A stretch of 64,000 nucleotides of DNA, taken from assembly GCA_050575255.1 (NCBI GenBank), contig JBNZDD010013691.1, positions 6,137,982 to 6,201,981 of the forward strand, written 5' to 3'. The DNA comes from Harriotta raleighana (lineage: Eukaryota). Position numbers and translations under genes: made by a program. The notes beneath the pieces were generated by a model that was not told where the DNA came from, did not search any database, and saw nothing but the letters and a program-made list of their open reading frames with translations. Below, one piece after another: positions 828 to 62,217 of the stretch. Every line of letters begins with the position of its first letter. Position 1 is the first letter of the stretch.

Positions 828-977
828 ACTGCTCAGTTGCGGTCCATTCATCTGGAATTAATTGCTGCTCAATCTATTGTGGAGGATGCAAACAATCTGG
901 AACAAGCAAGCAAGAAAAGTGCTTCAGATCTTGACAAAAATGTCGTGGTTATGGCAGAGAAAATGGGTCAGATCAAG
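828..977 (+). pseudogene. Laminin alpha-like coiled-coil exon (open, phase 0-0)
   Basis: Acceptor ttttgtatccattag, donor AAG/gtcagt. 50 codons: TAQLRSIHLELIAAQSIVEDANNLEQASKKSASDLDKNVVVMAEKMGQIK. Heptad pattern; resembles the remembered LAMA2 segment EATDKIREANRLFAVNQKNMTALEKKKEAVESGKRQIE. Confidence 0.75.
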
Positions 978-1337
978 GTCAGTTTCAAGATATAGAAAGA
1001 ATTAGTATGAAATATAAGTTCAATCGAGCCAGAATTGTGGCTTCAACACTGTTGTAATAAAGTGGGATTGAATTGTAGATTTATTCTCAATAGACAAACC
1101 ACAATGAATGAAAGTGCAGCTTGCTTATTATGTTGTGGTGACTTTGAGCTCAGGGGAATGTAACCAAAAAATAAATTGTGCAATCCTTGCATTTGATATA
1201 GTGCCTATCACATCAAAAGATCTCAAAGGGCTTCATAAGTAATTGTTGTCTTGGGTAGTGGACTGTATATTTGTAGGCAACTGCAGTGTCAATTTACGCA
1301 CAGCAATGAACAGGAATCAAGTGAATGACCAATTTAT

Positions 1338-1900
1338 TGTAGAGTATTGTGTGCAGTTTTGGTCTCCTTATTTAAAAAAGGACATACTTGCCTTAGAGGG
1401 GGTGCAGCATAGATTCACTAGGTTAGTTCCTGGGATGAGGGGAGTGACCTATGAGGATAGGTTGAATAAACTAGGGCTTTATTCTAGAGTACAGAAGAAT
1501 TAGGGGGGATCTTATTGAAACATATAAAATTCTTAAAGGGCTAGATAAAGTAGACACTGAGGAATTGTTTCCCCTGGTAGGAGAATCTATAACCAGGGGT
1601 CACAGTCTTAAAATTAAGGGGCAGACTTTTAAAACAGAGTTGAGGAAACATTTCTTCACTCAGAGGGTAGTGAATTTATGGAATTCACTACCCCAGAAGG
1701 CTGTAGATGCTCAGTCGTTGAAGATTTTCAAGGTTGAGACTAATAGATTTTTGAAAAATAGAGGGATTAGGGGATATGGGGATACGGCAAGTAATTGCGT
1801 TAGGTCAGAAGATCAGAAGATCAGCCATAATCTTATTGAATGGCGGGGCAGGCTCGGAGGATCAAATGGCCAACTCCTGCTCCTAATTCTTATGTTCTTA
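1338..1900 (+). mobile_element. CR1 LINE 3' fragment
   Basis: EYCVQFWSPYLKKDILALEGVQHRFTRLVPGM...TRGHSLKIKG..FKTELRKHFFTQRVVNLWNSLP, then a 3' UTR ending ttcttatgttctta. Confidence 0.9.
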
Positions 1901-2088
1901 TCTGGAGGAGTGTTGCCCAGGAAACAGAAGAAATCCGCTTCTCCTTCTCTTTTCAAATCGTGCATAGTCTTTAATAATCACTTGAAAGGCAGATGAGGCC
2001 CTTGATTTATTGCCTTGTCTCTTTCAGAGGACAATACTTATGATGCAGAACTCCTCTCAGCACTATGTGGTGGGAAAATATCCTAATA

Positions 2089-2470
2089 CAGTAAAAGCTT
2101 GTTTATGTAGCACCCAACCGGAACGCTCAACCAACCGTATCTCCCAATAGAATTCACCATTCCGGGAAATGAATCTCATAAAGGAGCCATCCGGGACACT
2201 CGCGAGTATGCTTATTTTGCGTATGCGAGCAATGCGTGCACATGCGCACTTATTAAACTTAGAGAACCCTGGAATTTTTATTTTACTGAGTGTGCTGGAA
2301 TGCTTTGTTGGTAAGTATCCATGCAATATTCTGTTATTATTCAGTCTATTATTAATATGGTATCTTTTAAAATAAGTTAATTTTTTGTGTAAGATTTTCA
2401 GCAACTTGCATCATATTTGAATAAAAAACGTCAACGGTCCTGAGGATGCCGGATAAACAAGCTTTTACTG
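2089..2470. mobile_element. Tigger/pogo-like MITE, family A
   Basis: TIRs cagtaaaagcttgtttat...ataaacaagcttttactg, flanked by TA on both sides. Confidence 0.85.
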
Positions 2471-4340
2471 TATATATGCCGAAGAAATTCGCCAAACACT
2501 TCAAAGCCTGTGGTAAACAGATCTGCATTTTCCCAGCCCAATGCACATTAATGTCTATATTTGGTCAAAGCCAAATGATCTTTATTGCTTCAACGCTGTC
2601 TTTTGGATCCATTGCTAGAATTGAGCAAAATCATCACCTCTAATCGTCCGTGTGCTTTTCTCCTGTCATTCATTACAGTTGTAAATTAATGTGTAACCCT
2701 AAAATTAACATATCATGGGGGATAAAAGATTATTACAATTGAGTAACTTCCTCAGAAATTATATTGAAAGTAAAAACTAATTTAATAAAATTCACACCAA
2801 AATATTTGCAAAACCATGAAAGAAATATCTTGTTATGAGTATATTGAGTATCAATATAAAACCTCTTTCAAAATCTATTAAGTGATCCATGCATAGTCAT
2901 TAGTAGTTTATGTAAAGAGGTGATTGATCAGAAGATGGCAAACCCATATACCTGTGGAATGATTTTCGTGTTACCTGCTCAGTTGATAAACAATTGCTTT
3001 TCAGTCAGAAGATTGTGGGTTCAAGCTCCATATTAGGACTTCTTAAGATCTTAAGCTAAACTCGAGTGCATTGTTGGAGGAGTGCCGCAATTTCAGAGCA
3101 TCTTAATGATGTGATAAGAGGATGGTAACATGGATATTCTTTTCCTTTCTCTCAGTGTCCTGCCAACAATTCTCCAAATAAAATTGGTTACTCACTTCAC
3201 ATGGTTGTATTAAAATAGTTGCCATATCTTCCGACAGAAGCAATACAATTACAACAAAATTACATTTGGATATATTACACTGTACAGAAAATCCTGTAAA
3301 GCACATTAAGACACTTTGATGATGCATATATCAAATATATCAAGATGTTATATCAAATATAAAAATTATTATATACTTTCCAGTCAGCGTGGGCTCACTG
3401 TAAGGGAAATCGGGAAATTTTCGAGTACACACATAATTGGCTCCTGATATTTTATCACCACAGAGCTTGACATTTGAGTGGGTGATAGATCATACCAGCC
3501 GAACATTGCTCAGAGCCTAGGCTCGGTGATGAGTGATACATACGATAGACAATTCCTGCCACCCTGTTTAAGCTCTGACAAAAGCTTTAAAGGTTTTGTG
3601 CAAAATTGATGCCCCCACAAATCAATGTCCCCACAAATTGGTGCCTTCAATACACCTGACAATCCCTTTCAGGGAGACAGTCAGCCACTGCTTCCGCTTT
3701 TAAGTGCTTCTTGTATCCTTTCCATTGCTTATATTTTTTATATTGATCTCACACTATTGTTTCTACTGCAGTCAGCATCCCTTGAAATGGTGTTATGTTC
3801 TGTTATGAGTAAAACTATTTATCCTGTGGACAAGATTTTGTACTATAATTTTCACAGATTCAACAACAACAAAAATACTGGCTAGTGTCTGTCGAGCAGA
3901 CAGATGGAGTGGGTTAGGAGGATTTAAGAAGGGTGCAGGTTCAGTATAATTTTAATGGGTTCAGTATAATTTGAACTTTTTAAAGTTTCATTTACAAATT
4001 GCTTTTCATCCAAATTCTGGCCTCAGCAACAAACATTTTGCTTTTCTTTTCATTTTGATTCATACTTTTTTCAGAAGGTTCTTAAAATGGAGTCTTCCAA
4101 AGACAGTCACAATTTGGTAAACTTGATACAGGAGTCAAAGTAATGGTAAATGTTATACAGCTTCCTCAGTGCAGATTAAACATAAATGGGGAATGGATTG
4201 TAATACTACTATTTGGATGGCGCCTTTCACGTCGGGAGGACTTATACCAAATAAACACATACCAAATAAACATATACCAAACAAGCATGATTACACTACT
4301 GGTAACTTTAAATTATAACAATAATCCTTGCTTTGATATA

Positions 4341-4605
4341 CAGTAAAAGCTTGTTTATCTGGCATCCTCAGGACCTGAATGGTGCCGGTTAATTAAATAT
4401 GCCGGATATTCGAGCGGCAAGTTGACGAAAATAATAAGTGCGCATGCGCACACATTGCACATATGCGCAAAGTGGGCACACCTGTCAGTGTCCCGGATGG
4501 CTCCGGTATGAGATCTGTTTGCTGGAATGATGAATTGTATTGGGAGATAACGGTTGGGATTGAGTGTTCCGATTGGTTGGGTCCCAGATAAACAAGCTTT
4601 TACTG
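4341..4605. mobile_element. MITE family A copy (internally deleted, opposite orientation) inserted in a SINE tail
   Basis: Same TIRs; internal sequence is the reverse complement of the 2089-2470 copy. Confidence 0.85.
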
Positions 4606-5149
4606 GAGTACAGTAGCGCTTTATTGAGAGGTCTCAAAGTGCTTCACAGCGGATTGACTGTATATTTTGTGGGTGAAATGCAGCAGCCAATTGTGCACAG
4701 CAGTGCTCCACAAACATTCCTGGATTGAGTTTTAAATGTTTTTAAATATAGCTCTATATATAACTTTCTCCCTCACATTTTCTGAACCTGTCTGAAAGGT
4801 GCTGATTGGGGAAGAGAAAAGGGGCATCATTACCTGTATGATTAATCTATGTCCTCTATACTGTGGTCACTAGTTGAAATACTTTAGACCTCCTCCGTTT
4901 TATAGCCCAGAGATATAAAATTATAGCTTGCTCTCACATTGCTCTTGGTTGAGCGACTGTGGAGAATGGCAGTATTCGAGTGGATAATTATTCTCTCTCA
5001 CCTGGAACAAATTCTCATGTACAGAGTCTTCCTTTCAAAAATTTGTTCTCAGGACATACTTGTGTTTGATTTCCGTGAGCAAATTATTTCAATGATCCTT
5101 TGGTCCATCGTGCAGGCAATGGGTACCTTGGTACATGCATTGCACTTTA

Positions 5150-5277
5150 AGAATCCTGTAGCTCAGTGGTTAGAGCACTTGCCTTGCAAGCGAGAGACTG
5201 GGTTTGATTCCTGGCAGCACTAATCTTTGAGCAATGTGCATTGCACTCTATCAAATGTAAGGATTATTATTTATTAA
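5150..5277 (+). mobile_element. tRNA-derived SINE, internally deleted
   Basis: A box tagctcagtgg, B-box-like ggtttgattcc, tail ggattattattt. Confidence 0.7.
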
Positions 5278-8010
5278 ATGGCAGTGGTTTTGCCCTTCTG
5301 ATAATCAAGACTCTCAGTAGGGTGTGGGTGAGGGAGAACAGAACTCTCTGCTTTGCTGTTATGGTATGTTATGATGTGTCCTGTAAATAGCAGTTCAAAG
5401 TTGTCTCCCAGAGTTAAACAGCAGCTTCACGAAGTTGAAATAAGGTATGGGCTCCAAATATTTTCAGCCAGACATAAACTTCACTATTATTTATATGTGT
5501 GGTGGGTGGGGTGTTTAACAGTATATTTCAGCGATGTTCTTTAAATAAGGAACTGGGCATGTTAGAAATACTACAATTCTGATCTTGTGGTATTTGAAAA
5601 AACAATTGGTTAAGTTAGAAAGGCCCTTTGCAGTGTGTTTATTAATGTTACCCAATTAGTCTATTTCTTGATAGGCTAGTTTTAGAATTACCTCTAATAT
5701 TATTCCATTAATCTTGTGTGATTTCCTTTGAAAACGCAAATCCAGAATTCTTACTAGACACTCACTAATGAAAAATTGCCTAAATTGGTACAAATGTAAA
5801 ATGTTGCATTATACAGAGAATATTGTCCTTGAAATTGCCTGTGTCACATTAGTAATCCCTTTGGTGATGTTCATTGTAGAAGCCACGGATTACCGCACTG
5901 AATACCAGTTTTAGGTAATTAGTAGCGTAAAAGTAAATTGAGGATTCAAAGTACAGTTTGACTTTTTGCTCTTAAACCTTGATGCCATATGCTAAGAATA
6001 TTGAAATTAATTTCAGTCTCAAGGTGAGAATTCATTACATTTTTTAAAATTCTGATCTGAATCAGGCTTTGATCCTCTCTAGAATATCTCCCTACGTTTG
6101 TGAGGTCACGTTTCAAATATGGTTGGATTTTCATCCTGAGAAACGTTTGAAAAAGTATTAACTTTCAGTTGAACACATTGTTGTGGCACGGAGACCACTG
6201 TATCATCAGGAATTGAATGCCAACCCTCCATCATCTCTCCTTTTCCTCCCCATTCAACACATCATTTTGCATCACTTACAGGCAAAGTAGGCCTATCTTG
6301 CTGCTGTGATTTAAACAAAAAAGGATAGATTCCTTGTGGTCTGATGGCAGGCCACAAGGAATCAACCAACTATGTAACCCACAAAAATAGGAAATAAAAA
6401 ATGTACCCAGCTGCAGAGAGGAGTGACATGCTGACAGCAGCGTACAGCTGTGTAATAAAATGATAAATGTGGGGTGACATTTGCATTTGTTCTTAATGCA
6501 TTCCTTGTGCTGATTATAACATGTCCTGAACCACTGCATATTTCTTCCTGTTCTTGAATTATTGCAATTATACCAATTATTGTCAATCAGCTGTCAGTCG
6601 ACTGTCAATCAGCGCAGACTCTCCCTTAAATCCCATGGTGTTAGCTGCCTATTGCTGGGTACCATCTTGACATGGCTTCTGACATGCACATTTCCACTCC
6701 TATTTGTCCATTATACAGGCAGATGTTATTTAATATAGAGGAAAATAGCTTAACTTGTTGGTTTAGTTGGTTTCCTGTCCAGGAGTGTTGAAATGCTTTT
6801 GAACGGAACAGCAATAGCTCTCCCCCCTTCCCACAGCAAAATAAAACAACAGTAGATATATTTCTAAAATCCTTTTGGGGGAGCCCACTCTATCAGAAAA
6901 TCTATTTCGAGAGAGATTTGTTTTAAGGACTGAAAATCATGTGTCCTTAGACTGGTTAGGGGGATTACTGTTGTGACACTGGTTCTTACTTGGTGGAAAC
7001 TTGTCCATCTGGCGAAAGTGAAATTTAATCATCTTTGCAGTGTTTTGTGACCATCTGTGACTGAACTTCAGGTCAGCTGAAGAAAGCCACTGTATGAGCT
7101 ACTCAATCTTACTGTCAATCCATTCAAGAGAGAATCTGGAAGTTTGTTGAAGTCTGGTGTTTCAAGCTATTTGAATAAGTCTTTTTTGCTTGTTGGAGCC
7201 TTGTATTTCAATGCAGTAGTTCTGCCTTCACAAATTCTGGGCTCGAATCTGCAGAGTTTACAAATTAAGGTCCTTGAAAACTCTGAAAACTGTGTTGTAG
7301 CAACTTATTTTTCCAATGAGAAAATATGGGTAGTTAGTAGACAAAAGATGCTATATAATTTACAGATGAGTAATACCGCAATTATTCTTACTCCATCTTT
7401 GGTCAGAATAGCAACAACAAATTGAATTTATATAGCGGCCTTCATGCAGGAGAGTATCCTGGAGCACTGAATGCCAAGAGAGGCAAAATAAAGACAGGGA
7501 GGTAACAACAGGCGTGATGGAAGAGTCCAAGATTTTTAGTTGCAGAATTACAGAATCTTGGGGAGGTTTGGTGCTCAGCCATATATTAACTCAGAAGCAC
7601 TCTGAAAATAACTCAGCAGTGGTTATTTAAAGTGGTTAGAGGAGTGGTTGGAGTCCTGTAGATCAGTGGTTGGAGCACTTGCCTAAGCAAGCGAGAAACC
7701 TGGGTTCAGTCCCCGGCATTTTTGGGACAAAAATGGCAGCCAATTCCTCACAACAGTGCCACACCAACAGTCATTGATTTTTCTGTTGTCATTTCTATTG
7801 TCCTAGTTTTTGTCAAACTGACCCCAGATGAAGAAAAAACAGCATAACATGACTTGGCCTCAGCCAAATGACTTTAGAACAAGATCGTCAACCGTAGCAG
7901 TGCAATTTGACTTAATGTGTTGATCTGCATTGTATTCTGCAGTTTTGTTTTGGAAAAAATACTGTTACTTATCAACTTTAGAGTGCAGGAGTTTATTTTT
8001 TCTCTTGCAG

Positions 8011-8164
8011 AGCAATATACTGTAATATTAATCCAACATTTGGTTGATAACATGACTGATATGACTACAAATACATCACAGATACTTCAAGTTGCAAGCC
8101 ACAATATGCAGCGAATAAATAACAGGATTCAAGAGCATTCAACTTGTGTTCTTGGATAAAGGAG
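8011..8164 (+). pseudogene. Laminin alpha-like coiled-coil exon with stop or frameshift near its 3' end
   Basis: Acceptor tttttttctcttgcag, donor GAG/gtaaac. Translation QYTVILIQHLVDNMTDMTTNTSQILQVASHNMQRINNRIQEHSTCVLG* (TAA 8157-8159) resembles NTLKEGNDILDEANRLADEINSIID of laminin alpha. Confidence 0.65.
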
Positions 8165-8359
8165 GTAAACAACATAAATACTGCATTGCACTGAATTTAA
8201 TCACTAAAGCGAGTGAGTGTGTTCGGTGTTGTGAGGGGGATGTTAAATTGATCAAAGCAAGAGCTGATCAGTGTTTTATGAATTTGAATCCTGCAATTAT
8301 GGATAGGATATTTGTGGTACCTTCTTGGTACCACAATTATTCAGAACTGTGAAACTCGT

Positions 8360-8770
8360 GTCCTCCCTCACCCCAGGATTTGGGAGCTTTATTGGCTCCC
8401 CCTCCCACAGAGGATCGACTTCAAGATCCTCATCCTCTTTGTTAAAGACCTTCACTGTTTTATTTCTCCCCATCTCTGTGACCTACTAAAATCTTACCAA
8501 CCTGCCTGTTCCCTTCATTTGACATGGATTGGCTTGCTCTAGTATCTGTTGTCAGGCTTTCACTCTTAAGCCGTTACCCTCCATCGCGGAATCCCTTCGC
8601 CTCACCACCACTTCCCATCTCTCCTTCATAGCCTGTCTCCTTCATTGACCGTCGCTTTGGTCATCTTCCCATTCACTTGATTCCAACCCCAAGCCCAGGT
8701 GCAAACCCTTGACTGTTCAGCATTTTGGGATGTCCATGTGAAAGGTGCTATATAATTGCAATTTGGTGTT
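8360..8770 (+). mobile_element. L2 LINE 3' fragment
   Basis: LYWLPLPQRIDFKILIL motif followed by the L2 tail gtgaaaggtgctatata. Confidence 0.8.
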
Positions 8771-9485
8771 GATTATTTTCGGAGAATATTTTTATTCTGC
8801 TTTTTCAATTTTGACAGAGAGGCAGATTGAATTTGTTCTGAGATTGTTACCTTCGTTTTCTACCTATTTGTTAAGCACTATATGTAGCATTTATTTCAGA
8901 AATTTTAATTTGTTAGGTGCTCATGATTGTTGCCATGAATTACTGACTTACAGGTAATCATTTAGCATCAACATTCCAGTTCTGAAAGNACTTACAGGTA
9001 GTCATTTAGCATCAACATTCCAGTTCTGAAAGATGCATTTCTCTTTGTACANGTAATCATTTAGCATCAACATTCCAGTTCTGAAAGATGCATTTCTCTT
9101 TGTACATTACTATTCAGAACTGAATGCCTTGAGCAGGTCATTTATGAGGCAGAATGTATTTCTAGCCCATTGTTGGTAATAAATTGACAAAATTGTTATG
9201 CTGAGAAAAGAAAATGAACATAGTATATTGGAAATGCAGTGTATAGTGTGAATGTAATACATCAAAACCATTGTATTTATTGCAACAAAATACATTCTGA
9301 TTCCCAGTCATACTGAGTCAAATTTATAAGCAAATTTAGAAAAACACAATTGAAAATAAAGGAAAACATGCAAACAATATTTGAGTGGTAGAGCATCTGT
9401 TATGTTAAACAAAGAATTGATTTGGGAACATATTAACCAGAGCTATCTACTGTCCATATCATGCAATTCTCCTGACTATAATAAT

Positions 9486-9993
9486 NNNNNNNNNNNNNNN
9501 NNNNNNNNNNNNNNNNNNNNNNNNNNNNNNNNNNNNNNNNNNNNNNNNNNNNNNNNNNNNNNNNNNNNNNNNNNNNNNNNNNNNNNNNNNNNNNNNNNNN
9601 NNNNNNNNNNNNNNNNNNNNNNNNNNNNNNNNNNNNNNNNNNNNNNNNNNNNNNNNNNNNNNNNNNNNNNNNNNNNNNNNNNNNNNNNNNNNNNNNNNNN
9701 NNNNNNNNNNNNNNNNNNNNNNNNNNNNNNNNNNNNNNNNNNNNNNNNNNNNNNNNNNNNNNNNNNNNNNNNNNNNNNNNNNNNNNNNNNNNNNNNNNNN
9801 NNNNNNNNNNNNNNNNNNNNNNNNNNNNNNNNNNNNNNNNNNNNNNNNNNNNNNNNNNNNNNNNNNNNNNNNNNNNNNNNNNNNNNNNNNNNNNNNNNNN
9901 NNNNNNNNNNNNNNNNNNNNNNNNNNNNNNNNNNNNNNNNNNNNNNNNNNNNNNNNNNNNNNNNNNNNNNNNNNNNNNNNNNNNNNNNNNNNN
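9486..9993. other. Assembly gap (508 N)
   Basis: Run of N flanked by AAT/ATT microsatellite. Confidence 1.
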
Positions 9994-19385: not shown

Positions 19386-20129
19386 GAAGGTTGTTATCTC
19401 TTGTTAGCTTTTTCTAAGAATTACATGCAGTTATGGTGATATTTCAACATTAGAATCATGCTATAAGACATCCCCTATAAGACAGATTTACTATAAAATA
19501 GTTGTCCTGTGGACCTTCTATTTGGTTTGAGGTCTAGTTTCAAGAGTGCTACTGGAAACAGGAAAATTTCATGAAGTTATTAGCTAGAGATGGAAAATGT
19601 GTCAGCTTTTGGGTGTAAATCAGCAATAAAACATGAAAAGGAATGATCTAATGGGGATAACTTTGCACTCGAGCAGTCAGGTCCAGGTTTGAATCCTATT
19701 TTGCTTGAGCTGATTATGGAAAAGGCAGATATTGAGATGTTACAATTGACTTCAAAGACCCTAGATTATGGAGAGGGAGGGAAAAATCATTAGACTTCCT
19801 GATAACCATCGTGCTGGAGTGGATGTTGTGGGGGATAGGATCAGATTTCACTGTGGTCATATTGCATAAAATATAAGAAAAATTATAGTACGGTATTCCA
19901 ATGATTTATTGGTGAAACTTATTTCATAGAAAAACCATAACAAAATTTATGCTAATTTTATTTGCTTTTACTGGCTGAACAGATGTTTGACTTTCCCAAA
20001 GGCAGACTTACATTGCTATGTTAAATTCCCCTTTAGAAAATGCAGAATGTCAATAATATCACAGAAAGATCAATTTCTTTTTGAGTTGGAAGTCAAATGT
20101 TTGACATTCTGAAAGATTATCCTTACAGA

Positions 20130-20870: not shown

Positions 20871-21054
20871 GTATTCTGTAGGCACTCTTAATAGTGTACA
20901 AGAGAGCCCCTGCTATCATCAGCTTTTGGAAACCAACGTGATAGAGAAATGTTGTGACATGTGTAAACACTGCATAAGATGCTCAAACATAATCCAGGAA
21001 CTAATGAGTGTTGTATTATTGAATAGTTACTTTGTGCTCTCTTCCCACGAAAAG

Positions 21055-21230
21055 ATCCTATGTGTACGTAGAAACCACAGGCCTGAAAGAAAATCGAAAG
21101 GCATATTTAGTATCTCCAGTGCTCCTTGGTACCCAACGTCCATGTTTCAGCTTTTATTTCCACATGCACAGCTCATTTCATGGCAGCATAATGGGACTTC
21201 TCGCTGTACATGTGATCTCTGCTACTGAAG
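21055..21230 (+). pseudogene. MAM-domain central exon (open)
   Basis: SYVYVETTGLKENRKAYLVSPVLLGTQRPCFSFYFHMHSSFHGSIMGLLAVHVISATE matches MAM G.Y.Y.E.S......A.L.SP......C.SF.YHM.G...G.L.V.V. Donor GAAG/gtaaga; the acceptor (cccacgaaaag) is weak. Confidence 0.85.
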
Positions 21231-21550
21231 GTAAGAAGAGCTAGGAAAATATCACCAGATTTACCCTGCTATTAGCCCTTTCAGAAATCCCAGGGGTTGA
21301 TATTTATCTGTGAGCTTTTACATCATGCCTTGGTTTTTTTAAGAAAATCATTTTTTTTCTTGATTTAGCACATTTCATGTCAACAGTGTCTCAAAGCACC
21401 AAATATTATATATTGCAAAGTTAGTGACTGTATTTTGTAGGCAAATGGGACAGCCAAATCGCGCATGGCAGGAAATCTCCCTTCTCCTTCGAATAGAGCC
21501 ATGGGATATCTCCCGTCCACCAGAACAAACGGGACCTTAGCGTAACATTT

Positions 21551-24055: not shown

Positions 24056-26074
24056 GGCAGACAGGCTAGATTGGCAGAATCGTATGCAGTGTGAAGTGAC
24101 CACCTCGACAAGTGGAGGCAATACATTTGCATGTCATGACTGTGGCATCCTTTGCCCCTCCAACCTTCAATGTGAAGGTTGGATCCCAAGCTATTATGTA
24201 AATAGAAATGGAATCCTTCAGCAGAGTATGGCTCATGTTATAGAATGCCAGCTTAACTCAACAAAAGTTTTTTAACAATAATTTTATAATTATATTGTGT
24301 CTTTTAAGTTGAGAGAACTTCTCAAAAAGTGTCCCCAAACCAATGTTTCCTTGACAAAGTGTCACTTTGGTGCCAAGCCAGTTGTGTTCAGTACCTTGGG
24401 ACATCCTCCTGATATGAAAGGCATTATGTAAATGTACATTAAATGTACTTGACTGAATTATCAAAAACATGCTAATTAACACATCACAGGTCAGAATATT
24501 CACCCCTATTATTAAAAATAAAAAAGATAAAAGGCCAGTTGGTACATTTTTTATTGCTTGGACATGGTAGTTACCAAACAATTCCAAAAGCTAATGTGCA
24601 AATATGTCAACCAGACTCAGAAAATCTTTCTAATGAGAGAATGCATCTCATCAATTCAGAACGCAGTGCAGCAGCAGCGTGGAAAGATTGCAGGCTGCAC
24701 TTTAGCTGATTAAAAGTAGAGTGGTAATGAAGCAGAGCATTCAAGCATAAAGTAAATATCTCACATAAGTCCTCTTATAATCATTACGATGCAATAACAA
24801 GCAGCATTGCATCATGCCAGCACCAGTTCTACATTCTGGTGTTTGAAAGAAATGTTGTCATAAAATGTTCACCATTAATGCAATTCTTTCTCCAATTGCC
24901 CCCAGAATCCTACCTTGAAGTCCCATGGGGCTGTTATTTCTATCTTTGCTTTATTCCAGCCTTCACCGTTATTTCCATACTCCTGCCAGATTGGTAACCT
25001 AAGATGAGAGTCCAATTCATTGCTGGAGAGTGGCTTATTGTCAGATGAGACATTAAACTGTGGTCCCGTCTGCCTGATCAAGTGGGTGTTAAGGATCCAG
25101 AGGCACTATTCAAAAGATAGGGAGTTTCTTCCAATGTCCTGGCCAACAATCCCACGAAATAAAATTGGTCATTCACTTTATACTTTTTGTGGCACATTGC
25201 TAATATACTACAGTGAAGATCTGGGGCTATGCTCTCAACATCAAAGGCTTCTGTGCCAAATACAAGGATTAAAAATTTATGAATAATAGTTATAACAATA
25301 TTGAATTTGGTGCAAAATAGCCATGGATTAAAATGACCAATTTTATCTGAGGGATTGTTGGTCAGGGCACCAAAACCTTGTTTCAACATTTCATTGAAGG
25401 ACAGCACCTCAGAAAATACAGCTCTTTCCTTGTTCCTGTATTGGAGTGCCACTTTGATAGTATTAGTAAACAGAGTTACTGTTTTTGCAATTATTGCTAA
25501 CTATCCTTTCCTTGGATGGCATGAAATGCTTTGAATATATAATTTGTAGTTAGGTGCAACTGCCAAATTAAACACAGTGCTATCCTACAAACAGCCATGG
25601 AGCCAGTGATCACTTTACTAAAGGAATTGTTGGCCAAGTCACCAATACTATTCGATTTCAGTACTGACGTGAATGACACTGTATAAATGTATATTTATTG
25701 TCATGGGCTCTTTGATGTCCATCTTAAAGGTAGATGAGACATTGATTTATGCCCTGAATTCACTTTGACCGCCCTCAGACTTGATTTGAACACTGGTTTG
25801 AAATACAGGAATAAAAGTTGGGCTCGGTTATTTTCCCTGTGCATTTCTTCATTTGAACATTTTTTGATATGATGAGTATTATTTTACATAATCATATAGT
25901 TTACAGTACTGCCTCAGATTACAGTATTTGGATATAATAGAATTGAGGTAAGAAGTGTGAAATGTATTAAAATGTGAGTAAGATACTAAAATTATCTTTC
26001 AGTTCTAAGTATCATAGTCTAATTTTAATACAGATTCTATTCTTGCCTATGTTCTTGCCTATCTTTCCATTCAC

Positions 26075-34955: not shown

Positions 34956-35043
34956 ATCATTCTGGAGGGCTACTTTGAAAACTCGATGACCAGTCAAGCA
35001 AACATTGCCATAGGTGATTTAAACTACAGAGAGAGGCAATGTG
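34956..35043 (+). pseudogene. MAM-domain C-terminal exon (open, phase 0-1)
   Basis: Acceptor cttcatttttgcag, donor TGTG/gtgaga. IILEGYFENSMTSQANIAIGDLNYRERQC matches MAM IVFEG.......GDIAIDDI......C. Confidence 0.85.
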
Positions 35044-38095: not shown

Positions 38096-38265
38096 TGAAT
38101 GAAAGATTTACTGGATCAAAACTCCACACAGTTTATGTACACGGTTGCTGAATATTCGAGGAGCTTGATGTGGGAGAGGAAATGGGCTAGTGTTCTGGAC
38201 GATCTGCAGGCTATGGAGCAAAGAGTTATGAAGGCCGACAAGCAGGATGTTGGCAAAGTCGAGCA
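38096..38265 (+). pseudogene. Laminin alpha-like coiled-coil exon, disabled at its start and truncated by a SINE
   Basis: Acceptor actttttgatcacag, then TGA followed by MKDLLDQNSTQFMYTVAEYSRSLMWERKWASVLDDLQAMEQRVMKADKQ. Resembles laminin alpha ELNDKIDDLSQ...EKVSQAESH. Runs straight into an antisense SINE tail (aataataatctttgcatttgatatag). Confidence 0.55.
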
Positions 38266-41347: not shown

Positions 41348-42558
41348 CAGTTAACCCTCGTCGAAGGCGACTTTATCGATAGTGAATTCAAGTATATGCG
41401 ATGAAACAAAAGCATCACTTTTTTGAGCAGCATTCGTAAAACTTGTGTATACGCGCTGTTTGGCCGGCCCCCGATTGCATGTACATGGGTGAAGATGCCG
41501 ATAGCTCCTGACTAAATCTGATGATTCCTCGGGTGGCTGGTCTCACNACTGTTTGGCCGGCCCCCGGTTGCATGTACATGGGTGAAGACGCCGATAGCTC
41601 CTGACTAAATCTGATGATTCCTCGGGTGGCTGGTCTCACAGGCATGCGTATTTTTGACAAGGCGGGCAGATCCTGACTATATCCGAAGCCTTTCGCGCAT
41701 GCATTCTGGGTAAATAGAATAACGCTTTGGCCTTGGAGAATCTTCTTGCATTGCATGGTAAATAGAAGAGACACACAGAGAAAGACGGGGATCGTACAGC
41801 AATGTAGGCCAATCTACTTTGTTGTTTTATTGCTTTTTTTTTGTTGCTTTACTGCTTTGTTATCACTTTATTTTAGTAATAAAGCGATAACAAAGCCACT
41901 GTCTCCTTTCTGTGTCCCCAGCACTCTGCCCTCCGAGCGGCTCGCTGCCCCCCATCTCTCCGAGTCCCCCTCCCACCCTGCCTCCGAGCAGCTCGCTGCC
42001 CTGCACCTCCCCGAGTCCNTCTCTCCGAGTCCCCCTCCCACTCTGCCTCCGAGCAGCTCGCTGCCCTGCACCTCCCCGAGTCCCCTCGCGCCTCTGATCG
42101 GCTCTCTCTCCTGCACCTCCGCGAATCCCCCACCGCCGCTGAGCGACTCGCTGACCCGCACCTCCCCGAGTCCCCCCATGCATCCAAGCGCTTCTCTGTT
42201 CCCTCCACCCCCCACCTGCCCGCCACTCCCCCGATTTCTCTCTGCCTCCCTCCCGGGCTGCCCTGATTTGTCCACTTCCTGGGTGGTAGGAGAGACAAGA
42301 GCAGGAATAGTGGGGGTGAGGAGGGGGGGGAGCAACAAGAGTGGGGAGAGGTATGCGGAGCGAGGAGCAGGCCAGCCAGCTGTAGCCTGCCTCAGTAGGT
42401 ACCTTGCATCGGATGTGCTGGAAGCTTGAGGTGGGTCGCCTACGACTGGATTCCTCTAACTCCCCCTTTTCCCATTACTTGTTAAGCTTACGCAACGTGA
42501 TTTTATTGAGTGCACAGTTTTCCAGGAACGTAAACCCGCAATCGATGCGGGTTAACTG
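41348..42558. mobile_element. Tigger-like non-autonomous DNA transposon, family C, with internal GC-rich tandem repeat
   Basis: TIRs cagttaaccc.cg.cg...cgatgcgggttaactg-TA; ~50-bp units ctccgagcagctcgctgccctgcacctccccgagtccc at 41925-42180. Confidence 0.75.
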
Positions 42559-42793: not shown

Positions 42794-43038
42794 GATTTTT
42801 GTGGTGGCTGAGCAACATAGCAAAGATGCTATTAATGTCATGGAGACATTTAGCAACATTACCAAAATGATGGAAGCATCATTGACAGCCATCCAGACAG
42901 CAAACACAACTATTCAGGAGGCTAGGACACTGTTCAGGAATGACGCCTTAGCTGTTCTTGAAGAGAAGGCATCAGACAATTTTAACACAGCAGTGACTCT
43001 TAAAGATCATTTGGAACAGGCTCAGACAAAGTTTGAAG
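42794..43038 (+). pseudogene. Laminin alpha-like coiled-coil exon (open, phase 2-1)
   Basis: Acceptor atttatttcccag, donor GAAG/gtacaa. IFVVAEQHSKDAINVMETFSNITKMMEASLTAIQTANTTIQEARTLFRNDALAVLEEKASDNFNTAVTLKDHLEQAQTKFE aligns without gaps to the remembered LAMA2 ILDEAKNISFNATAAFKAYSNIKDYIDEAEKVAKEAKDLAHEATKL. Confidence 0.85.
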
Positions 43039-46844: not shown

Positions 46845-47425
46845 TCCCGCATCATGCTCCGTGACCACATCACTCCAACCTTCACCCATCTCCTCTGGCT
46901 CCCCATCCCCCAGAGGATCGAATTCAAGATGCTCGTCCTCAATTTCAAGGCTATTCACGGCCTTGCCCCCACCTATCTCTCTGACCTATCTCTCTCTCTA
47001 TCAGCCTGCCCGGCTCCTCCGTTCAGTGGGCTCTGGCCTACTCCATGTCCTCAGCCCGAACCGCCTCACCAGCAGTGGCTGGGTTTTCAGCCTCTTTGCC
47101 CCCACACTCTGGTACTCCATCCTGCAATCCCTTTGCCTCGCTTCCTGCCTTTTCTCCTTCAAGACGGGTCTCAAGAATTTTGTCTTCAACCATGCCTTCT
47201 GCTGCCCTCCTAATTCTCCCCGCTTTTCTACTCTCCTTCTCACTGGCCCTACCCTGTCTTTTGCCCCCCTGCTCAGGTCCCAACCTAACTGTTCAGTGCC
47301 TTGGGACGTCTNACTGGCCCTACCTTGTCTCTTGCCCCCCTGCTCAGGTCCCAACCTAACTGTTCAGCCTTGGGACGTCTTCCCGACACGAAAGGAACTC
47401 TATAAATGTAATTTTGTTGTTATTG
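46845..47425 (+). mobile_element. L2 LINE 3' fragment
   Basis: DHITPTFTHLLWLPIPQRIEFKMLVL motif and L2 tail. Confidence 0.88.
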
Positions 47426-53792: not shown

Positions 53793-53925
53793 GAATCAAT
53801 GATTTTTCACAACGTTTGGAGATTTTGAAATCCAATTTGCCTGAAAGGGAAAGACAACTTCAACATAATGTTAAATAAATGAAGACTTTGACTAGCAGCA
53901 ATAATAATAATGAGAATGATATTCC
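53793..53925 (+). pseudogene. Laminin alpha-like coiled-coil exon with in-frame stop
   Basis: Acceptor gttttctgtgttcag; phase 1 matches the donor at 43038. Reads GINDFSQRLEILKSNLPERERQLQHNVK*MKTLTSSNNNNENDIP with TAA at 53876-53878. The 3' end is uncertain. Confidence 0.65.
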
Positions 53926-55184
53926 GGTCAAGTTAAACTTGCCTTACACCTCTTCTGCTTGAAGAAGCAATGCTTGAATCAAATTGTATTTAACCCACTG
54001 TGAATCACACTCAAGCTTGACGCCAAGTGGTTTCACGGATAGCCAAATCCCTTATCCATGCCTTTATCATTTCCCGGCAGGAATATTTCAATGCCCTCCT
54101 CGCTGGATTCCCCAGCTCCACCATACCCAAAATCAAATTAATTGAAATCTCCACCACCCACATACTCATCTGCATAAAACTCCAAAACCATCACACCAGC
54201 CCTTGCAAGGCTCCGCCGACTCCCAATTTACAAACAGATCAATTTCAATACACCCTCAAAGGGCAAAATACTGCAGATCCTGGAAATATGAAATATAAAC
54301 AGAAGTTGCTGGGAACACTGACAAAAAAGGTCATTGAGTCATTGGCCAGAACTGCTAAATTTCAGTACAAAATGGCTTTACTGGCTAAAACTGGATGAAA
54401 TTTATAACCTAATGTAGGGATCTTACATTGGACTACAATTTCCATAGTTCATCTGAAGGATTAATGGATTTTCGTTTAATGTTATTGATGTGTCATTTGA
54501 ATATGCAGTTCTTGAATAGTACATTGAGATTGTAATGTTTGCCCATAAAAGTAGCAGTTATACTATTTTAATTTATGACCTGTAAAATAATAATGTAATA
54601 AAGCACTATATTCAAATATAAGGAGTATTATTATTACTATTACTAATAACATATATTATGTGATCATCTCGAGTGTTGATTATCATGTCACTGAAAATTG
54701 TGACTCAAAGCAGTCTTTCATTGCTGACTGGAACACTGAATTAGCATCCCCCTCCTGACTGCTGCACAATGATTTTCCCAAAAGTGCTTACTGTGGAGAG
54801 CTTTAAATTGTTGAGGGATTTTGATAGAGAGAGATTTTCTATTGGCTGGTGAGTCAGTGGCAAGAGGGCATCAAATTAAAACAAAGCTAATGGGAGATCA
54901 GGAGGATTTTATTTTACACAGAGTTGTTAAGATGTAGAATGCCCGGCTGGCGTACAGTGATGAATCATATCCAGTTTTCAAGAGAGAAGTAGATTGTTAT
55001 CTAAAAAATAATATTTTTTAGGGTTAAAGGGTACAGACAGATAAGTGTAACTAATAGATTGTTCTTGACTTTGGCCGATGCAATTATGCTATGCTTTATC
55101 AAATAGATTTATTGTAGCTACAACAACAAAATTACCCTTGTACAGCACCTTTCATGTCAGGAGGATGTCCCAAGGCTCTGAAGG

Positions 55185-55488
55185 CACTCACTGGTTAGAG
55201 CACTTGCCTCGCAAGCGAAAAAACTGGGTTTGATTTAGCGACAGGGCGAAACCTTGGGCAAGTTTCCTTATTCCACATGCCTGATAATAATCCCTGAAGA
55301 AAAAAATGAAAACAATAATTTGGTCATTCAACCCACGACTGTGTTGGGAACACTGCTGTGTACAATTGGCCGCTGCAGTTCGCTCACAAATATACAATCA
55401 ATTCACTTTACAGTATTCTGTGAAGTGCATTCAGACATCTAGAAGGCATGTAAAACATTATATCAAATGCAAGGATTATTATTATTAC
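55185..55488 (+). mobile_element. tRNA-derived SINE
   Basis: Homologous to 39383-39711. Confidence 0.85.
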
Positions 55489-58294
55489 ATTATAAGTAGT
55501 TGTTTTACATAAATAGCAATACAACATGAATAGTTGCTTCAGTAAAGTGCGACCACGGTACATAAAATGCTCAGCATAGCTAGAATGAGTCATACAATCT
55601 GGCAGTAGGCATATTGAGGTGCCATAATAGACACATATCAGATAATTCTCACTTTTGTACGGTCCTACTGATTTTTACAAAGTGAAGAAATAGGATCTCA
55701 TACATATATTATGCATATCATATGAATTAAAATGTATTCAATTTAGAATTTCCAGGCATGCTTTCTTGTTTGATAATATCTTGAATTTATGAATGAATTA
55801 CTGGTTAATATCCTGTTTCGTAGGTATTTGAGAATGTGTTCAAATGTACAAATATTCTACTGTTTTGATATGCTAATTATCTCCTTGATCTTTGTTGTAC
55901 GGGTACAAACAAATGCATCCATATGGCTGGGCCTGAAGAAAGCAGACATTCCAGCTGGCACAGCTACAACAACCACAACAACTTACATTTATTTAATGCC
56001 CTTTAGACAGGATGGTGTCTCGGAACATTTAACAACGATGGGATAGGACACCAAGCAAGGAAGAGAGGGGAGGTGGGTATAGATACATTCGAAGAGATGG
56101 ATTTGAAGTGGATCTTAAAGATAGATAGAGACAGGGTGGTAGAGGGGCAGCCTAAAAAGATAGCAACCGGAGCAGACAGCAACAATGAGAAGTTCAGGAA
56201 ATTGAAAGATAAAAAAATGCAAATTCTCTAGTTCCTGTGGGTTGTGGTCCTCTTAGAAATGACACTGACGATTGCAAATGCCCTTCTTCGCTTTGTGCTG
56301 CTCATGCCACTATGTGTTTGAGTATGGAGCCCATTCTGAGCTCATCACCATAGTTCAACCCTTCAGGGGTTTCAGCTGCTGCTACAAGATAATCGGAATC
56401 AGCTATTTTGCTTCCAACACTAGTTCTTCTGTGAGCAGTTCTGAAAGGTGTTTAGGAAGACAACCCTGCAAAGAGGCTTCTGAGAGTCGAGCAGTGCTAA
56501 TAAAATGCTACTTTTTTCTCTCTTTTAATCAGGCCTTGGAACGAGTGCCTAAGTAGCAATGTTTGTAAATGGATGTAAGAATCTTGGGTTATTTGACTGG
56601 CATGCTTTCAGTCTGGGCATGTTTCAATTATTACCTGATAAGATTTATCTTACAGGATGACGTGGCTCAAAACAGAATTACTGCTGATTTAATGCTTGGC
56701 TTCAACAGCTTACCAGAGACCACCTTCTTTCCATTCTGCACATCTTATCGTGTCAATGTTCTGATTTATTAACATGGTACTCAGCATATGTTTACTTTAT
56801 TAATTCTGCTTTCGGGCTGTGTAACTTAAACTATGTTAAGTCACAACTTGTTTGAACATCTTGTGCGAGTTATGAAGCTGACTGCTTAAGCTGATGCATT
56901 CTCTATTGACTTGTGCATGTGGAAATGATTGCAAAATGTGATGGTTATTGGCAAGGATGTTTTGCGGAGGCTGTTTGCCAAGCCTGGAAGTGACAGCAAG
57001 ATACCGTGTCTGAGCAAAACAATGTACTCTGGTTGCTATCTGGCATATTTTTGTTTGTGCAAATGTCAACCATGATTAAACCTTGCAGAAACGTTAGAAT
57101 GTTGACTTTTGAGCACTTGCTTTGTTTCAAAGCAGCTTTTAGACTGAATATAAGAGGTGCATTTTGTATTGTGTAGGAGGAGTTAAATACAGGTACATAT
57201 TGTGGAAATGGCTCAATGTGCTAAGTGTTGCTCCGTATTTATTTCACTGTAAAAGTGTAACGATCCACAAGCAAGTGGCATGACTTTATAGAACTTGATA
57301 GGTAATTGATCACAGAATGTAAACTATGCAACAATATTCTTACTTGGTTCCAACTGTTGAAATTTCTATAATTCATTTTTCGTGTTGGAATTTCTCCTCT
57401 CACATACTCTCCTGTATTGCATGTATCTTTAAGGACCTAATTGGCAATTGAATATGGATGATTCAAGGATAAAAGGATTCTAGGAAAGTGACTAAGCCGA
57501 AAGAGTTTGTAAAGTTGGATTTAAAGGACTGAGTGAACCTACATTGTGTTTTGGATTCAATAACATGACATGGTATCAGAAGTGAAAACAGAACCTGGAG
57601 TGAAGTTGACTATGAGAGGCATAATGCAGAGAAACAGAATTAAATTCCATGCCAAGGTATGTGCAGATACCAAAATCACTGAGTTGGTTGGAAATTTAAG
57701 ACATAATTGGCAATAGTTTGAAAGAGACATTAACATTTTTGGACTGGCCGGAAACATAATAGCAGTCTACTATATTTTTGAATGTAGCAGGCGAGGAAAC
57801 AAACAAATATTTGCAACCAAAGAAAGAGAGGTGAATATGCCATTGTTGGTGATAATGAATATTATGATGGAAAGATGTGGTAGAAAAATTGATGTGCTAA
57901 TTGACTAACTTAAGATTGGAGCAAGAAAGCAGGGACCCACAGAATCATTCCATCTATACTTTGTGGTACTGCGAAAAAAGTACAACTATGGAGCATTAAG
58001 AGATGAACTGATATGCGACCAGATCATGGTTTGCATAAAAGTTTAAGAGGAAAGCTTTTGAAAAAAAGAGATCCGACATTAGAATCGACAAAATTGAAAT
58101 AGTGGGCAGAGTAGAGATAGAAGTGATACAGAAAGGGAGACAATACAGAATAAAATTCTACACCTTAAAAATAGAAGCTGATACTTTATTATGATTGGAA
58201 GATATAATAAAAATGGGAATGTTAAAAAGAATTGGCAATGTGAAAATAAAGGAAAGTGAACCAAAGGAGGGGGAAGAACTAATAGGACAATATA

Positions 58295-59110
58295 AATAAC
58301 AACAACACAATTACATTTGAAGAGCATCTTTCATGTCGGGAAGACATCCCAAGATGCTGAACAGTCATGGGTCAGGACCAATCATGGGGTGGAGGACAAG
58401 GTTAGGATGAGGAAGGGAAGAGAGATAGGAGACATGATCAAAAGACATAGTAGAAAGGGAGGGTCTTGAAGGAGGCATGAGAGGGAGTAAGTCAGAGGGA
58501 TTGTGGGATAGAGTTCCAAAGGGTTGGGACAGAGAGGCTTAGCTTGCTGAATGGAGGGACCAGACAGCTTAATAGTGGGTCAGCAGATCAGAGAGGTAAG
58601 AGAGGGCAAAGGACGTGGGAGCCTTGAAAGTGAGGATAAGGATTTGAATTCCAACCTGTGAGGGATTGTGGTAGGGAGAGTGGGTGGAGATGAGCGACAT
58701 TGCCGGTGATAGGGTCACAGAGGCTGGTGTGGAAAAGTTTGGGATGATTTGCAGCTTGTGGAGAGAAGCATTGGGGAGGCTGAAAAGGAGATAGTTTCCA
58801 TAGTCCAGCCTTGATTTGACAAATGCATATATGAGGGTTTTGGCAGCCTGAGAGGTGAGTTCAATAGCGGAGTCAGGCAATGTTGCAGAAGTAGTGGAAG
58901 ACAGATCTGGTCATGGCATTACTATTAGGGAGAAAGGACTTTTGAGGGTCGAACAAGCCGCCCAGCTATCTGAATGGCTTGGTGAGGTGAAGTGTACATG
59001 CATAGATGCTGATCTGCCAATGCCTGAGGTGTGGAGACTCTGGCACGAGCCAATTAGGGGGGCCTCAGTCTTGCTGATGTTCAGCGGTTGAAAATTGTTA
59101 TTCAGCTATC
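58295..59110 (-). mobile_element. L2 LINE inserted in the Gypsy element
   Basis: AAKTLIYAFVKSRLDYGNYLL on the reverse strand; tail at 58295. Confidence 0.88.
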
Positions 59111-59610
59111 AAGAAGAACACCAGAGGCAATGCAAAAAAGATTGCAAGAAAAATTTAGACCACGGATACAGTGACAAAGATATTAGAATACGAAATGGTA
59201 AGATCTATGGAAAGAAAAAACTTCCAAAAAAAACAAGAAACTGAATTGTTTTGGAGGAAATACTTAAAAATGGAAGGCTAGATCAGGAAAAGTTTGGGGG
59301 AAAGATGAGAACCCTAGATCCTATTGGGTAAAACATGAAAAAGGAAAGATACGAAGACAAACATCATGAGAGATCAAACAAAGAACAATAAAGAAAATAC
59401 AGAAGAAAAACAAAAAGCAGAAGGAAGAGGAAAGAGTGGCAGAAACTGTGAGAACAACTACATCTGGAAGAGAAATAGTAAGACTTCAAAGAATGATAGA
59501 ACAAGATTGAAAGAAATGAGAAAAACTAAAAAGAAGGAAGATGTTTCTTATTGCTTTAACAAACTAAGTGACATTTGAATATGGATGATGCAAGGGTCAC
59601 TTTCTGGGAA

Positions 59611-59918
59611 AATAATAATATAATCCTTGCATTTGTTATAGAGCTTTTCATATCTTCCAGACGTCTCAAAGCGCTTCACAGAATATACTGTAAAATGAAT
59701 TGACTCTATACTTCTGAGCAAAACACAGCAACCAATTGTGCACAGCAGTGTCGCACAAACAGTTGTGAGTTGAAATGGCCAATTTTTTATTATTAGTTTT
59801 TTTGAGGGATTATTATTAGGCATGTGGAGTAAGGAAACTTGCCTAAGGTTTTGCCCTGATCTGCCTAGATTCGAACCACAGATCTCACACACTTGTAAGA
59901 CAAGGCAACTGACTGAGC
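59611..59918 (-). mobile_element. tRNA-derived SINE inserted in the 3' LTR
   Basis: Reverse complement of the 39383 SINE; absent from the 5' LTR. Confidence 0.88.
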
Positions 59919-60729
59919 AGATTTGAAAGAGGTTGATTTGGAAAGTTGGAATTAAAGAACCAATGGAATCTACATTGTGTTTTGGATTAAATAACATTAC
60001 ATCCTGAAAGTTTGAATTGTTTGTCCGCTCTACTGGGGCTGTCAATTATCCAGCACAAGCCAGGAAATAAACCTTCACCACAATAATCTAGGACAACAGT
60101 ACTTGGAAAGTAGGACCTGGAGCAGCCCTTTGAGCCTGATTCTGAAAATTATTATATTTTGACAATGTTTTACCAATCTAATCCAATTTCCCTGCCTTTT
60201 CTAGAGATTCCTTACTTCTCAAGCAGCTATCTATCTACAGTATATCTCACTTGAACAATGCCTTTTAATCTCTATTTATGGTCTTTTGAGTGAGTGCATA
60301 CTAAACTCTTGACAAATCTTTGTGCAAGGGAATGTTTTTACATGACCAAAGTGAGCTAAGATTTTATCAATGTCAAATGCTGCTCAATGTGACTTTTATA
60401 ATTTTACAATTTCTTGCTTGCTATTTTTGGTAGAAATTAAAATTTTGCTTACTGAAAAGAGCACCAAAACTCATTTAATGTAATTTGAGATAATCTTATG
60501 GCCTCATCCATCACTTCTCTTTCCTCGGTTCTCCAATCAGGTCTCAACCAAACCAGATTAATTGAACCCGTAAAATTTATGTGATCTTAAGATCAGATCT
60601 TATATGATAGTTGAACAAGGTTTCAGATCCTCAAAACCTGTTGCAGGGGAATTTAGGAATTTTCATTTTAGCTAAAATGGCGAGCTGATGGGGCCAATGT
60701 GTTGAGATAGAGAAATTAAAGTCTAATGA

Positions 60730-61610
60730 ACCAACAACAAAATTACATTTGTGTAGCACCTTTCACATTGTGAGGACATCCCAAGGCCCTAGACATACAG
60801 TATTTTGGGGATAGGGATTGGAGAGAGTGGAAGGCATGGGGAAAAGGTGGTTGATCAAAAGCACAGTTGAGAGGCCTTGAGGTGGATCTTTGAAGGAGGC
60901 AAGGAATGGGACGAGGTGGAGGGACTGCAGGATGGAGTTCCAGAGGGTGGGAGCAGAATGGCTAAAGACCTGCTGCCAACGATGGGGCAGGCGAGGTGGG
61001 GGATGTGAAGCAGACCAGAACCCACTGAGCAGAGAGGCCGAGCAGATTGGTAGTGGGTTAGGAAGTTACAGAGGAAGGGCAGCAAGGCCATGGCTCTTCA
61101 ACTGTATTGATTGTTTGATGGGGAGCCAATGGAGTCGAGTGAGGGTGAAGGTGATATGGTAAAGGACCCTACTGCAAGAGAGGATGTGAGCTACAGGATT
61201 CTGGATGATCTACAGTCTTTGGTGGGAGGTGTTGTGGAGGCCAACAATCAAGGAGTTTGCATCATCAAGTCTGGATGTTATGAATGCATCTATAAGATTT
61301 TTGATGGCTGGCAGGGGGAGGCAGTGGCAGAGCCAAGGTGAAGGAAGAGAAGCATGGCATGGATGTAGGGTAGAAAGGATATTTGAGGGTTGAACAAGAT
61401 GCTAGGATTCCAGACCGGCTTAGTGAGATGGAGTGAGCATCCATAGATGGTGATGATGTCACTAAGAGGGATCATATAGATGTTGAAGAGAAGGGGACCA
61501 AGGACTGAACCCTAAGGAATTCCTCATGAGGCAGTGTGGGGACTAGAGAAGAAATTGTTTGTGGAGATAGATTAGAGGCAGTGTGAGAGATACAAACTGA
61601 ACCAAATCAA
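60730..61610 (-). mobile_element. L2 LINE fragment
   Basis: Reverse strand shows [19 protein letters not shown] through to the L2 tail. Confidence 0.85.
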
Positions 61611-62071
61611 ACAAAATATATTGTTTGAAAAAAGAACATCATATAGAGGTGCAAAGAACAACCTGAAGCTTTTTTGCTGAATTATATGCTATTCTTCTAT
61701 AATTTAAGCACTTTTGCAATTTTATGGAACACTGTGGCTTAGTTTATTCAAAGATCAAGAGGTGCTTTGTTTCCACAGGGGCTTTTTTTAAATCTAGAAT
61801 CACATCCAGTAATATCAAAAGCATGAAATAAAAAAATAAATAGAGGCACCAAACTCAATGCAATCTGCAGGGAAGCTTCCTCAGCATAGTAAATTGGAAC
61901 CTTATACAGTACTTGTACATACATTAAGTGGTGATTGATGAACAAGTCTGTTTTTAACAGGGACTTGTCGACAGGGTAGGCAGTGCCTACCTTATGAAAA
62001 TGAAAAAAACTTAAAATGATATATGATTATTTAATGGTTTATAATTTTATATTTATATTCAACTTGAATAG

Positions 62072-62217
62072 ATACAACAGCTGCTGCACCAACATGCCAA
62101 CAATTTACAAGTGTGAGCAGGATATAATTCAGATTATTATTTCAAATTGTCCAAGGGCCCTGATCAAATCCACATTTTCAAAGAGAGCAAAGTCTCTGAG
62201 GAATTCAAAGATTTTAT
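62072..62217 (+). pseudogene. Candidate exon spanning the coiled-coil end and start of LG1
   Basis: Acceptor atattcaacttgaatag. IQQLLHQHANNLQV*AGYNSDYYFKLSKGPDQIHIFKESKVSEEFK resembles the laminin alpha junction IKELI.QAR..AN.I.V...F.G......L.........SL.F. TGA at 62114-62116; donor uncertain. Confidence 0.4.

Follow-up and report, generated by a model that had tools for sequence, protein, structure and literature searches.

A probable laminin pseudogene with a MAM domain among its rod exons in Harriotta raleighana

Did a laminin chain with a MAM domain on its coiled-coil rod ever exist? The question is raised by a 64,000-nucleotide stretch of the Harriotta raleighana genome (positions 6137982-6201981 of contig JBNZDD010013691.1, C13691, in the 1.10-Gb assembly GCA_050575255.1), referred to here as the window, in which a sequence-only reading had proposed a laminin alpha-like gene interrupted by a MAM domain. 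The laminins of vertebrates are regarded as a closed set, with five alpha chains in mammals, each of which ends in LG domains (PMC5338690). We examined the window together with 200 kb upstream and 186 kb downstream; negative coordinates lie upstream of the window, and exons, lesions and the inversion described below were all read from the assembly. We put the probability at roughly 55% that the locus preserves, now dead, the gene of an additional laminin chain of alpha type, one that branched off deeply and whose rod likely bore one looped-out MAM knob. If this is true, an extra deep-branching chain with an adhesion domain of ~160 residues in its three-stranded rod would imply that a large insert can be accommodated in the laminin long arm and that this arm can have a binding site of its own, and one more gene loss would enter the history of basement membranes.

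A laminin short arm and rod in decay

Between -75767 and -24933 we located 14 short-arm exons, which encode in order the end of an LN domain, LE1, LE2, three further LE, the start of an LF domain, four LE, two pieces of L4 and an LE array. This LE-LF-LE-L4-LE order is that of alpha3/5 chains. All eight upstream frames tested matched the Pfam laminin EGF family, six of them above the cut-off, and one L4 piece lay above the Pfam Laminin_B cut-off, at 22.7 bits. A search of the flanks for LE and LG exons, as the sequence-only reading had suggested, was thus successful for LE, but no LG exon was recovered. Only the last strand of the LN domain was seen, at -75767; none of the 138 non-repeat frames of at least 46 amino acids between -130 and -76 kb matched an LN body by Pfam, nor did any match profiles that score control LN exons at up to 97 bits, and three weak minus-strand LN-like matches at -77.4, -76.9 and -61.1 kb were rejected (E 0.1-4, out of order). 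Neither Pfam frames nor profiles detected a further LF exon beyond the LF start.

The same genome holds five other alpha-laminin loci, plus several beta, gamma and netrin loci; the labels alpha1-5 used for its own loci were assigned from sequence and domain order. When 14 query pieces cut from the short-arm exons were scored as chains against 29 target laminins, all 14 aligned in order onto invertebrate alpha3/5 chains, which took the three top scores (best, 1378). The next score, 1330, belonged to P0169, a partial coral protein (LN-5LE-LF-LE-L4-LE) that we assigned to the beta/gamma-like class by domain order and that was the sole such protein available. Beta chains scored 993-1285, alpha1 1123, alpha2 1029, the genome's own alpha3 model 906 and gamma chains at most 876. 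LE2 has a long insert as in alpha chains, whereas beta, gamma and the coral beta/gamma-like chain lack it or have a shorter one, and it scored 97-125 against four of the genome's own alpha chains versus 48-78 against its beta and gamma chains. The LF-start piece found its top match among alpha3/5-type targets (score 65; shuffle maximum 57), and the best match of one L4 exon among 130 targets was alpha1. The three pre-L4 exons and the 125-nt L4 exon resemble alpha1/alpha2 in both phase and sequence, while the post-L4 exon phases (2-1, 1-0, 0-1, 1-1 and 1-0) are the same as in alpha5. Identity to the nearest invertebrate alpha3/5 chains was 38-45% in four LE blocks.

The rod comprises nine exons and ~525 residues, beginning with the CxxC exon (Table 1). 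The five alpha rods of the same genome have 519-559 residues as assembled, and we counted the length as agreeing with the ~550-600 residues that we look for after the last LE of a laminin chain. The exons that the sequence-only reading had placed at 828, 8011, 38096, 42794 and 53793 are helical and heptad-like and are bounded by AG and GT or by an acceptor, although not all of them are open. Its possible exon at 62072 was rejected, since this frame stops after 17 codons and has no profile match; the next rod exon is that at 64281. The gap-free match to LAMA2 claimed for the 42794 exon proved weak (score 41, z 0.6 against the genome's own alpha2 rod; z 2.4 against alpha3), but the exon is the top match of an alpha-rod profile among 11138 chunks and aligns at the intended register (7.0 bits, E 1.2). 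Single-exon alignments against 11 rods were mostly not significant, and single rod exons scored 1.8-6.8 bits on an alpha3/5 rod profile, none significant alone. Among 5184 six-frame chunks from ~100 kb around, six of the seven top distinct matches of this profile were rod exons of this gene, counting those at -16598 and 64281. A Pfam comparison, also proposed beforehand, matched the MAM domain; no rod exon matched Laminin_I or Laminin_II, and no LG was found.

Thirteen of the 26 located exons, including four of the eight inside the window, are broken by stops, frameshifts, dead splice sites, repeat insertions or inversion. In-frame stops lie at -73051, -52904 and 53876; frameshifts affect the exons at -67632, -63158, -54039, -52967, -37214, 8011 and 38096; the exons at -53313 and -40905 have acceptors without AG; and repeats interrupt those at -42517 and 38096. 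In the 8011 exon no stop-free frame joins the splice phases, as the phase-0 frame has stops and the helical middle is open only in another frame. With equally distant invertebrate queries as a control, internal stops appeared in 2 of 11 exon loci here, versus 2 of 214 in ten paralogues, where both were apparently read-through into introns. From 59 exons, open rod chains could be put together at each of the five alpha loci, with a single alpha4 exon left unlocated; this control of openness is partly circular, as the rod exons of these loci were picked as open. Neither the 42794 exon nor MAM exon 2 has another close copy in the genome. With this damage the single-copy locus is likely a pseudogene from which no protein is made here; the sequence-only reading had proposed a divergent alpha paralogue and had missed the decay, with one MAM exon inverted and one missing.

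Could the gene be intact and its lesions be assembly errors? The assembly has local duplications around single N positions and a 3.4-kb tandem repeat of one exon, and it is from this assembly that the lesions were read. We nonetheless consider this explanation hardly credible: damage of five kinds is spread over 13 of 26 exons, the stops and repeat insertions are found away from N positions, and ten paralogues and the adjacent 633-codon LINGO frame are open in the same assembly.

The MAM exons among the rod exons

The claim that a MAM domain lies among the rod exons held up, as the frame at 21023-21241 scores 29.6 bits on Pfam MAM (PF00629; cut-off 26.4). Three exons, one of them inverted, together cover MAM profile positions 46-159. 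Exons 2 and 4 have the same strand and order as the rod, and exon 4 ends in a phase-1 intron, as had been read. The four same-strand MAM exons originally described were not recovered: exon 3 is on the minus strand, and its phases put it out of phase with exon 2. Exon 1 (positions 1-45) was not found; the best of 4998 chunks between -30 and +95 kb scored 8.2 bits, whereas true N-terminal thirds of the training set score at least 18.4. At the acceptor side of exon 3 lies a dispersed repeat (25018-25201), and around this exon no convincing inversion breakpoints were found, only repeat pairs that are 72-88% identical. Stretches near 19538, 28048, 28355 and 33122 were rejected as MAM pieces.

These exons might be the remains of a separate gene fragment, nested in or transposed into the 30-kb laminin intron, that was never part of the chain. 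Several features that tell against a MAM-bearing rod would fit such a fragment. The first MAM exon was not found and another is inverted relative to the gene, so that a spliced rod-MAM-rod product cannot be built from the assembly; exons 2 and 3 cannot be joined in phase; reading on from phase 1 into the downstream rod exon takes a frameshift; and MAM was present in none of the 121 laminins compared. It also counts against the main reading that the searches described below found no orthologous protein. Against a fragment stand the shared orientation and order of exons 2 and 4, and the lack of any other domain exon noticed between 8164 and 38096, an interval for which no full Pfam scan was made. 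In addition, the 8011 exon exceeds alpha rod exon 6 by 37 nt and its donor is compatible with phase 1, which is what one would look for in a linker leading to a phase-1 module. We therefore regard a separate origin of the MAM exons as improbable.

The intact ancestor would have been secreted, and its rod would have zipped with one beta and one gamma chain. If the MAM module did belong to the rod, it may have been inserted where alpha rods have their exon 6/7 boundary, as a cassette with phase-1 borders and a short linker, which we infer from the extra length of the 8011 exon. MAM domains bind proteins, and laminin beta chains have a knob in their coiled coil. By analogy with that knob, the MAM domain would have bulged from the trimer, giving a putative protein-binding site on the long arm, and if LG was already absent, the MAM knob rather than an LG foot may have been the main contact. 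The general roles assumed here for the laminin rod, LN and LG are those given in PMC5338690. The gene would later have lost function in this lineage and gathered its stops, frameshifts, repeat insertions, deletions and inversion.

Chain type and phylogenetic position

Gene structure leans towards alpha, by exon sizes and phases, the alpha-type LE2 insert and the alpha3/5-type LF start. Exon phases and the insert were judged against paralogues of the same genome. The 263-nt rod exon equals alpha3 rod exons 1+2 (152+111 nt, phase 1-0) and the 245-nt exon equals alpha3 exons 8+9 (142+103 nt, phase 2-1), and neither has a counterpart in gamma1 or beta; the 189-nt exon comes close in size to alpha exon 11, which has 183 nt. 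The proposal of a divergent laminin alpha paralogue therefore stands as far as an extra gene with alpha affinity in its short arm and exon phases, but not by rod sequence, which by itself does not separate alpha from beta.

A number of observations weigh against an alpha-type chain. The joined rod scored 31.2 bits on a beta profile, 25.8 on alpha and 9.4 on gamma; it beat residue shuffles (alpha p 0.007, beta p 0.003) but did not stand out clearly from controls in which exons were reversed or their order permuted (alpha p 0.88). The 150-nt, phase 0-0 rod exon at 828 matches a gamma1 exon exactly. The LE located before LF number only five, which is the count of beta and beta/gamma-like chains, and LE1 is similar to its counterpart in the coral beta/gamma-like chain (rank 3 of 130). 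No LG exon was found by Pfam in 150 frames between 62 and 90 kb (150 of the 155 non-repeat frames of at least 36 amino acids), and LG profiles, which score alpha1 and alpha2 LG exons at up to 75 bits, gave at most 7.4 bits here, with none found on the scaffold. As LG is the defining part of alpha chains, we call the gene alpha-type rather than an alpha chain. The missing LG does not have to be primary, because LN, which must have existed, was equally undetected; loss after pseudogenisation is possible.

The main tree was built from 643 LE columns and 21 taxa after 12 of 33 rows had been dropped (three alpha3 rows with mis-extracted blocks and nine redundant ones). It places the window gene between the alpha chains and the beta/gamma group, on a long branch whose depth may be overstated, because decay lengthens it. 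The best tree, a further point against alpha, makes it weakly sister to P0169 (support 0.57 and 53.8). In the approximately unbiased (AU) test, p was 0.75 for this position, 0.64 for sister to all alpha chains and 0.24 for sister to alpha3/5; a beta position was not rejected (0.09), alpha1/2 was borderline (0.052), and vertebrate alpha5 (0.042) and gamma (0.041) were rejected. A recent copy of vertebrate alpha5 was discarded accordingly. The phylogeny with alpha chains that the sequence-only reading had called for thus dismissed vertebrate alpha5, but between the base of the alpha chains and a place beside the coral beta/gamma-like chain the trees do not discriminate. In a FastTree analysis without netrin-G, the LE1-LE2 block joins P0169 at 0.91, yet LE2 is alpha-like.

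A second decayed laminin locus lies at C13702:850500-862500 (L143-L144), with the order LE-LE-L4-LE and stops in at least two exons. On two of its seven pieces P0169 ranks first of 130 (L4, 81 versus 60; post-L4 LE, 117 versus 105), and a 219-column tree of the L4 region makes it sister to P0169 (61.5/70), the window gene then falling, weakly supported, among the alpha chains. At a distance of 2.7 Mb this scaffold also has a netrin-G-type LN exon. From its sequence, the C13702 locus may be a vertebrate relic of the beta/gamma-like chain type that PMC3516229, citing Fahey and Degnan 2012, reports as absent from vertebrates and describes only as sharing structure with beta and gamma.

The window gene itself could instead be a decayed vertebrate beta/gamma-like laminin (LN-LE-LF-LE-L4-LE-rod, without LG) that gained a MAM insert. 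It has LF and L4 in one short arm and no LG found, the combination that marks beta/gamma-like chains. Its short-arm plan, with five LE before LF and then L4, is that of P0169, the best tree pairs the two, and P0169 ranks third of 130 for LE1 and second for LE4. The remaining pieces speak otherwise: P0169 ranks 98, 124, 91 and 73 of 130 for LE2, LE5+LF, L4 and the post-L4 piece, and the LE2 insert and LF start are of alpha and alpha3/5 type, respectively. Both branches are long and may attract each other, and the comparison involves one partial beta/gamma-like protein. Moreover, the C13702 locus takes the position sister to P0169, and since it fits P0169 better, the window gene is more probably a separate deep alpha-type lineage. 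Taken together, we judge a beta/gamma-like identity unlikely.

Extending the alpha-type reading, we tentatively suggest, with less than even odds, that jawed vertebrates once had a third, anciently diverged, LG-less alpha-type laminin lineage with a whole MAM domain on its coiled coil, which might still be working in some cartilaginous fishes and is dead here; together with the C13702 relic it may mark a lost trimer set.

Known laminins, searches for relatives and the locus

The closest known systems are alpha3B/alpha5 and the invertebrate alpha3/5 chains (LanA/epi-1 type), which share with the window gene the LE-LF-LE-L4-LE-rod order, the LE2 insert, the LF-start motif and the post-L4 and rod exon phases. 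In contrast to these chains, about six fewer LE were found here before LF, MAM lies inside the rod, and exons for LG and the LN body were not found. Relative to vertebrate alpha5 in particular, the window gene branches outside and is a pseudogene. It has an LF-type insert where alpha1 and alpha2 have L4a, despite its likeness to them around L4. With beta/gamma-like chains it also shares a short LE1 ending, but its LE2 insert and LF/L4 sequence are alpha-like, and the partial P0169 has no MAM. Beta chains share a globular interruption of the coiled coil, and a knob exon, which we take to be the L-beta knob, was seen in the genome's own beta models; this knob is a short loop rich in cysteines instead of the ~160 residues of a MAM domain, and beta chains lack L4 and differ in their rod exon phases.

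A search for orthologues with a rod exon found none among 50 candidates (proteins of up to 2000 amino acids), and a search with an LE exon returned one weevil beta chain only. MAM exon 2 matched 151 proteins among 1.84 billion representatives; the 150 listed have 27-45% identity and none matched the laminin exons. An LE alignment matched 1028 proteins of 2030-5000 amino acids, with no MAM among the 120 matches listed. Atlas searches found no match to the rod exon and, for MAM, no more than generic clusters, and nothing significant emerged when the rod exon was compared with PDB sequences. No RNA data set was listed as containing the sequence, which counts neither way. We found no laminin described as having a MAM domain inside its rod in the literature covered, which did not include the supplement of PMC3516229 or the paper by Fahey and Degnan (2012), either of which may bear on novelty. 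We regard the laminin variant as real, apparently undescribed and kept here only as a pseudogene. Because it is a fossil here, the value of the locus is as a pointer: it is flanked by the end of an SLC44 transporter gene near -106 kb and by a LINGO gene at +93 to +95 kb, and this SLC44-LINGO interval marks where a living orthologue should be sought.

Table 1. Coordinates of rod exons, MAM exons and neighbouring features of the laminin locus.
Feature	Position	Strand	Length and phase	Remarks
SLC44-family choline transporter gene	~-117 to -106 kb (L012:2954 to L011:4039)	+		Upstream neighbour on the same strand; six frames match Pfam Choline_transpo
Rod-start exon (CxxC)	-16598	+	263 nt, phase 1-0	
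Two tentative rod exons	-5871, -5579			Upstream rod set spans -16598 to -5420
Rod exon	828..977	+	150 nt, phase 0-0	Open; alpha3/5 rod profile 4.6 bits
Last rod exon before MAM	8011..8164	+	154 nt	GT donor; broken
Assembly gap	9486..9993	.	508 N	In intron where MAM exon 1 belongs; could hide MAM exon 1
MAM exon 2	21055..21230	+	Phase-1 donor	Profile positions ~41-98; open; acceptor uncertain; MAM profile 29.9 bits
MAM exon 3	24998..24914	-	85 nt, phase 2-0	13.0 bits; tblastn E 0.003
MAM exon 4	34956..35043	+	88 nt, phase 0-1	Open; 9.1 bits; end coincides with last cysteine of domain
First rod exon after MAM	38096..38258	+		Frameshift at start; repeat insertion cuts 3' end at ~38259
Rod exon	42794..43038	+	245 nt, phase 2-1	Open; single copy in genome
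Rod exon	53793..53926	+		In-frame TAA 53876-53878; donor uncertain
Last rod exon found	64281..64469	+	189 nt, phase 1-1	Open; just outside window
LINGO-family gene	93350..95248 (L023-L024)	-	633 codons	Single open frame; best PDB match LINGO ectodomain, E 9e-42

The LINGO-family neighbour is presumably LINGO2. At 8945-9106, 41456-41640, 41955-42087, 47238-47380 and L007:6981-7056, short stretches are duplicated in tandem, the two copies being separated by a single N; these duplications resemble assembly artefacts, and one of them splits the LE4-LE5 exon. One broken LE exon is present twice, at -67632 and -64258 (L007), ~3.4 kb apart and identical over the stretch shown, as a tandem duplication or an assembly repeat. 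Dispersed repeats make up about one third of the window, reverse-transcriptase fragments of long interspersed nuclear elements (LINEs) among them, and an upstream intron (L005, -48220 to -47243) contains a 326-codon frame that we take to be integrase-like.

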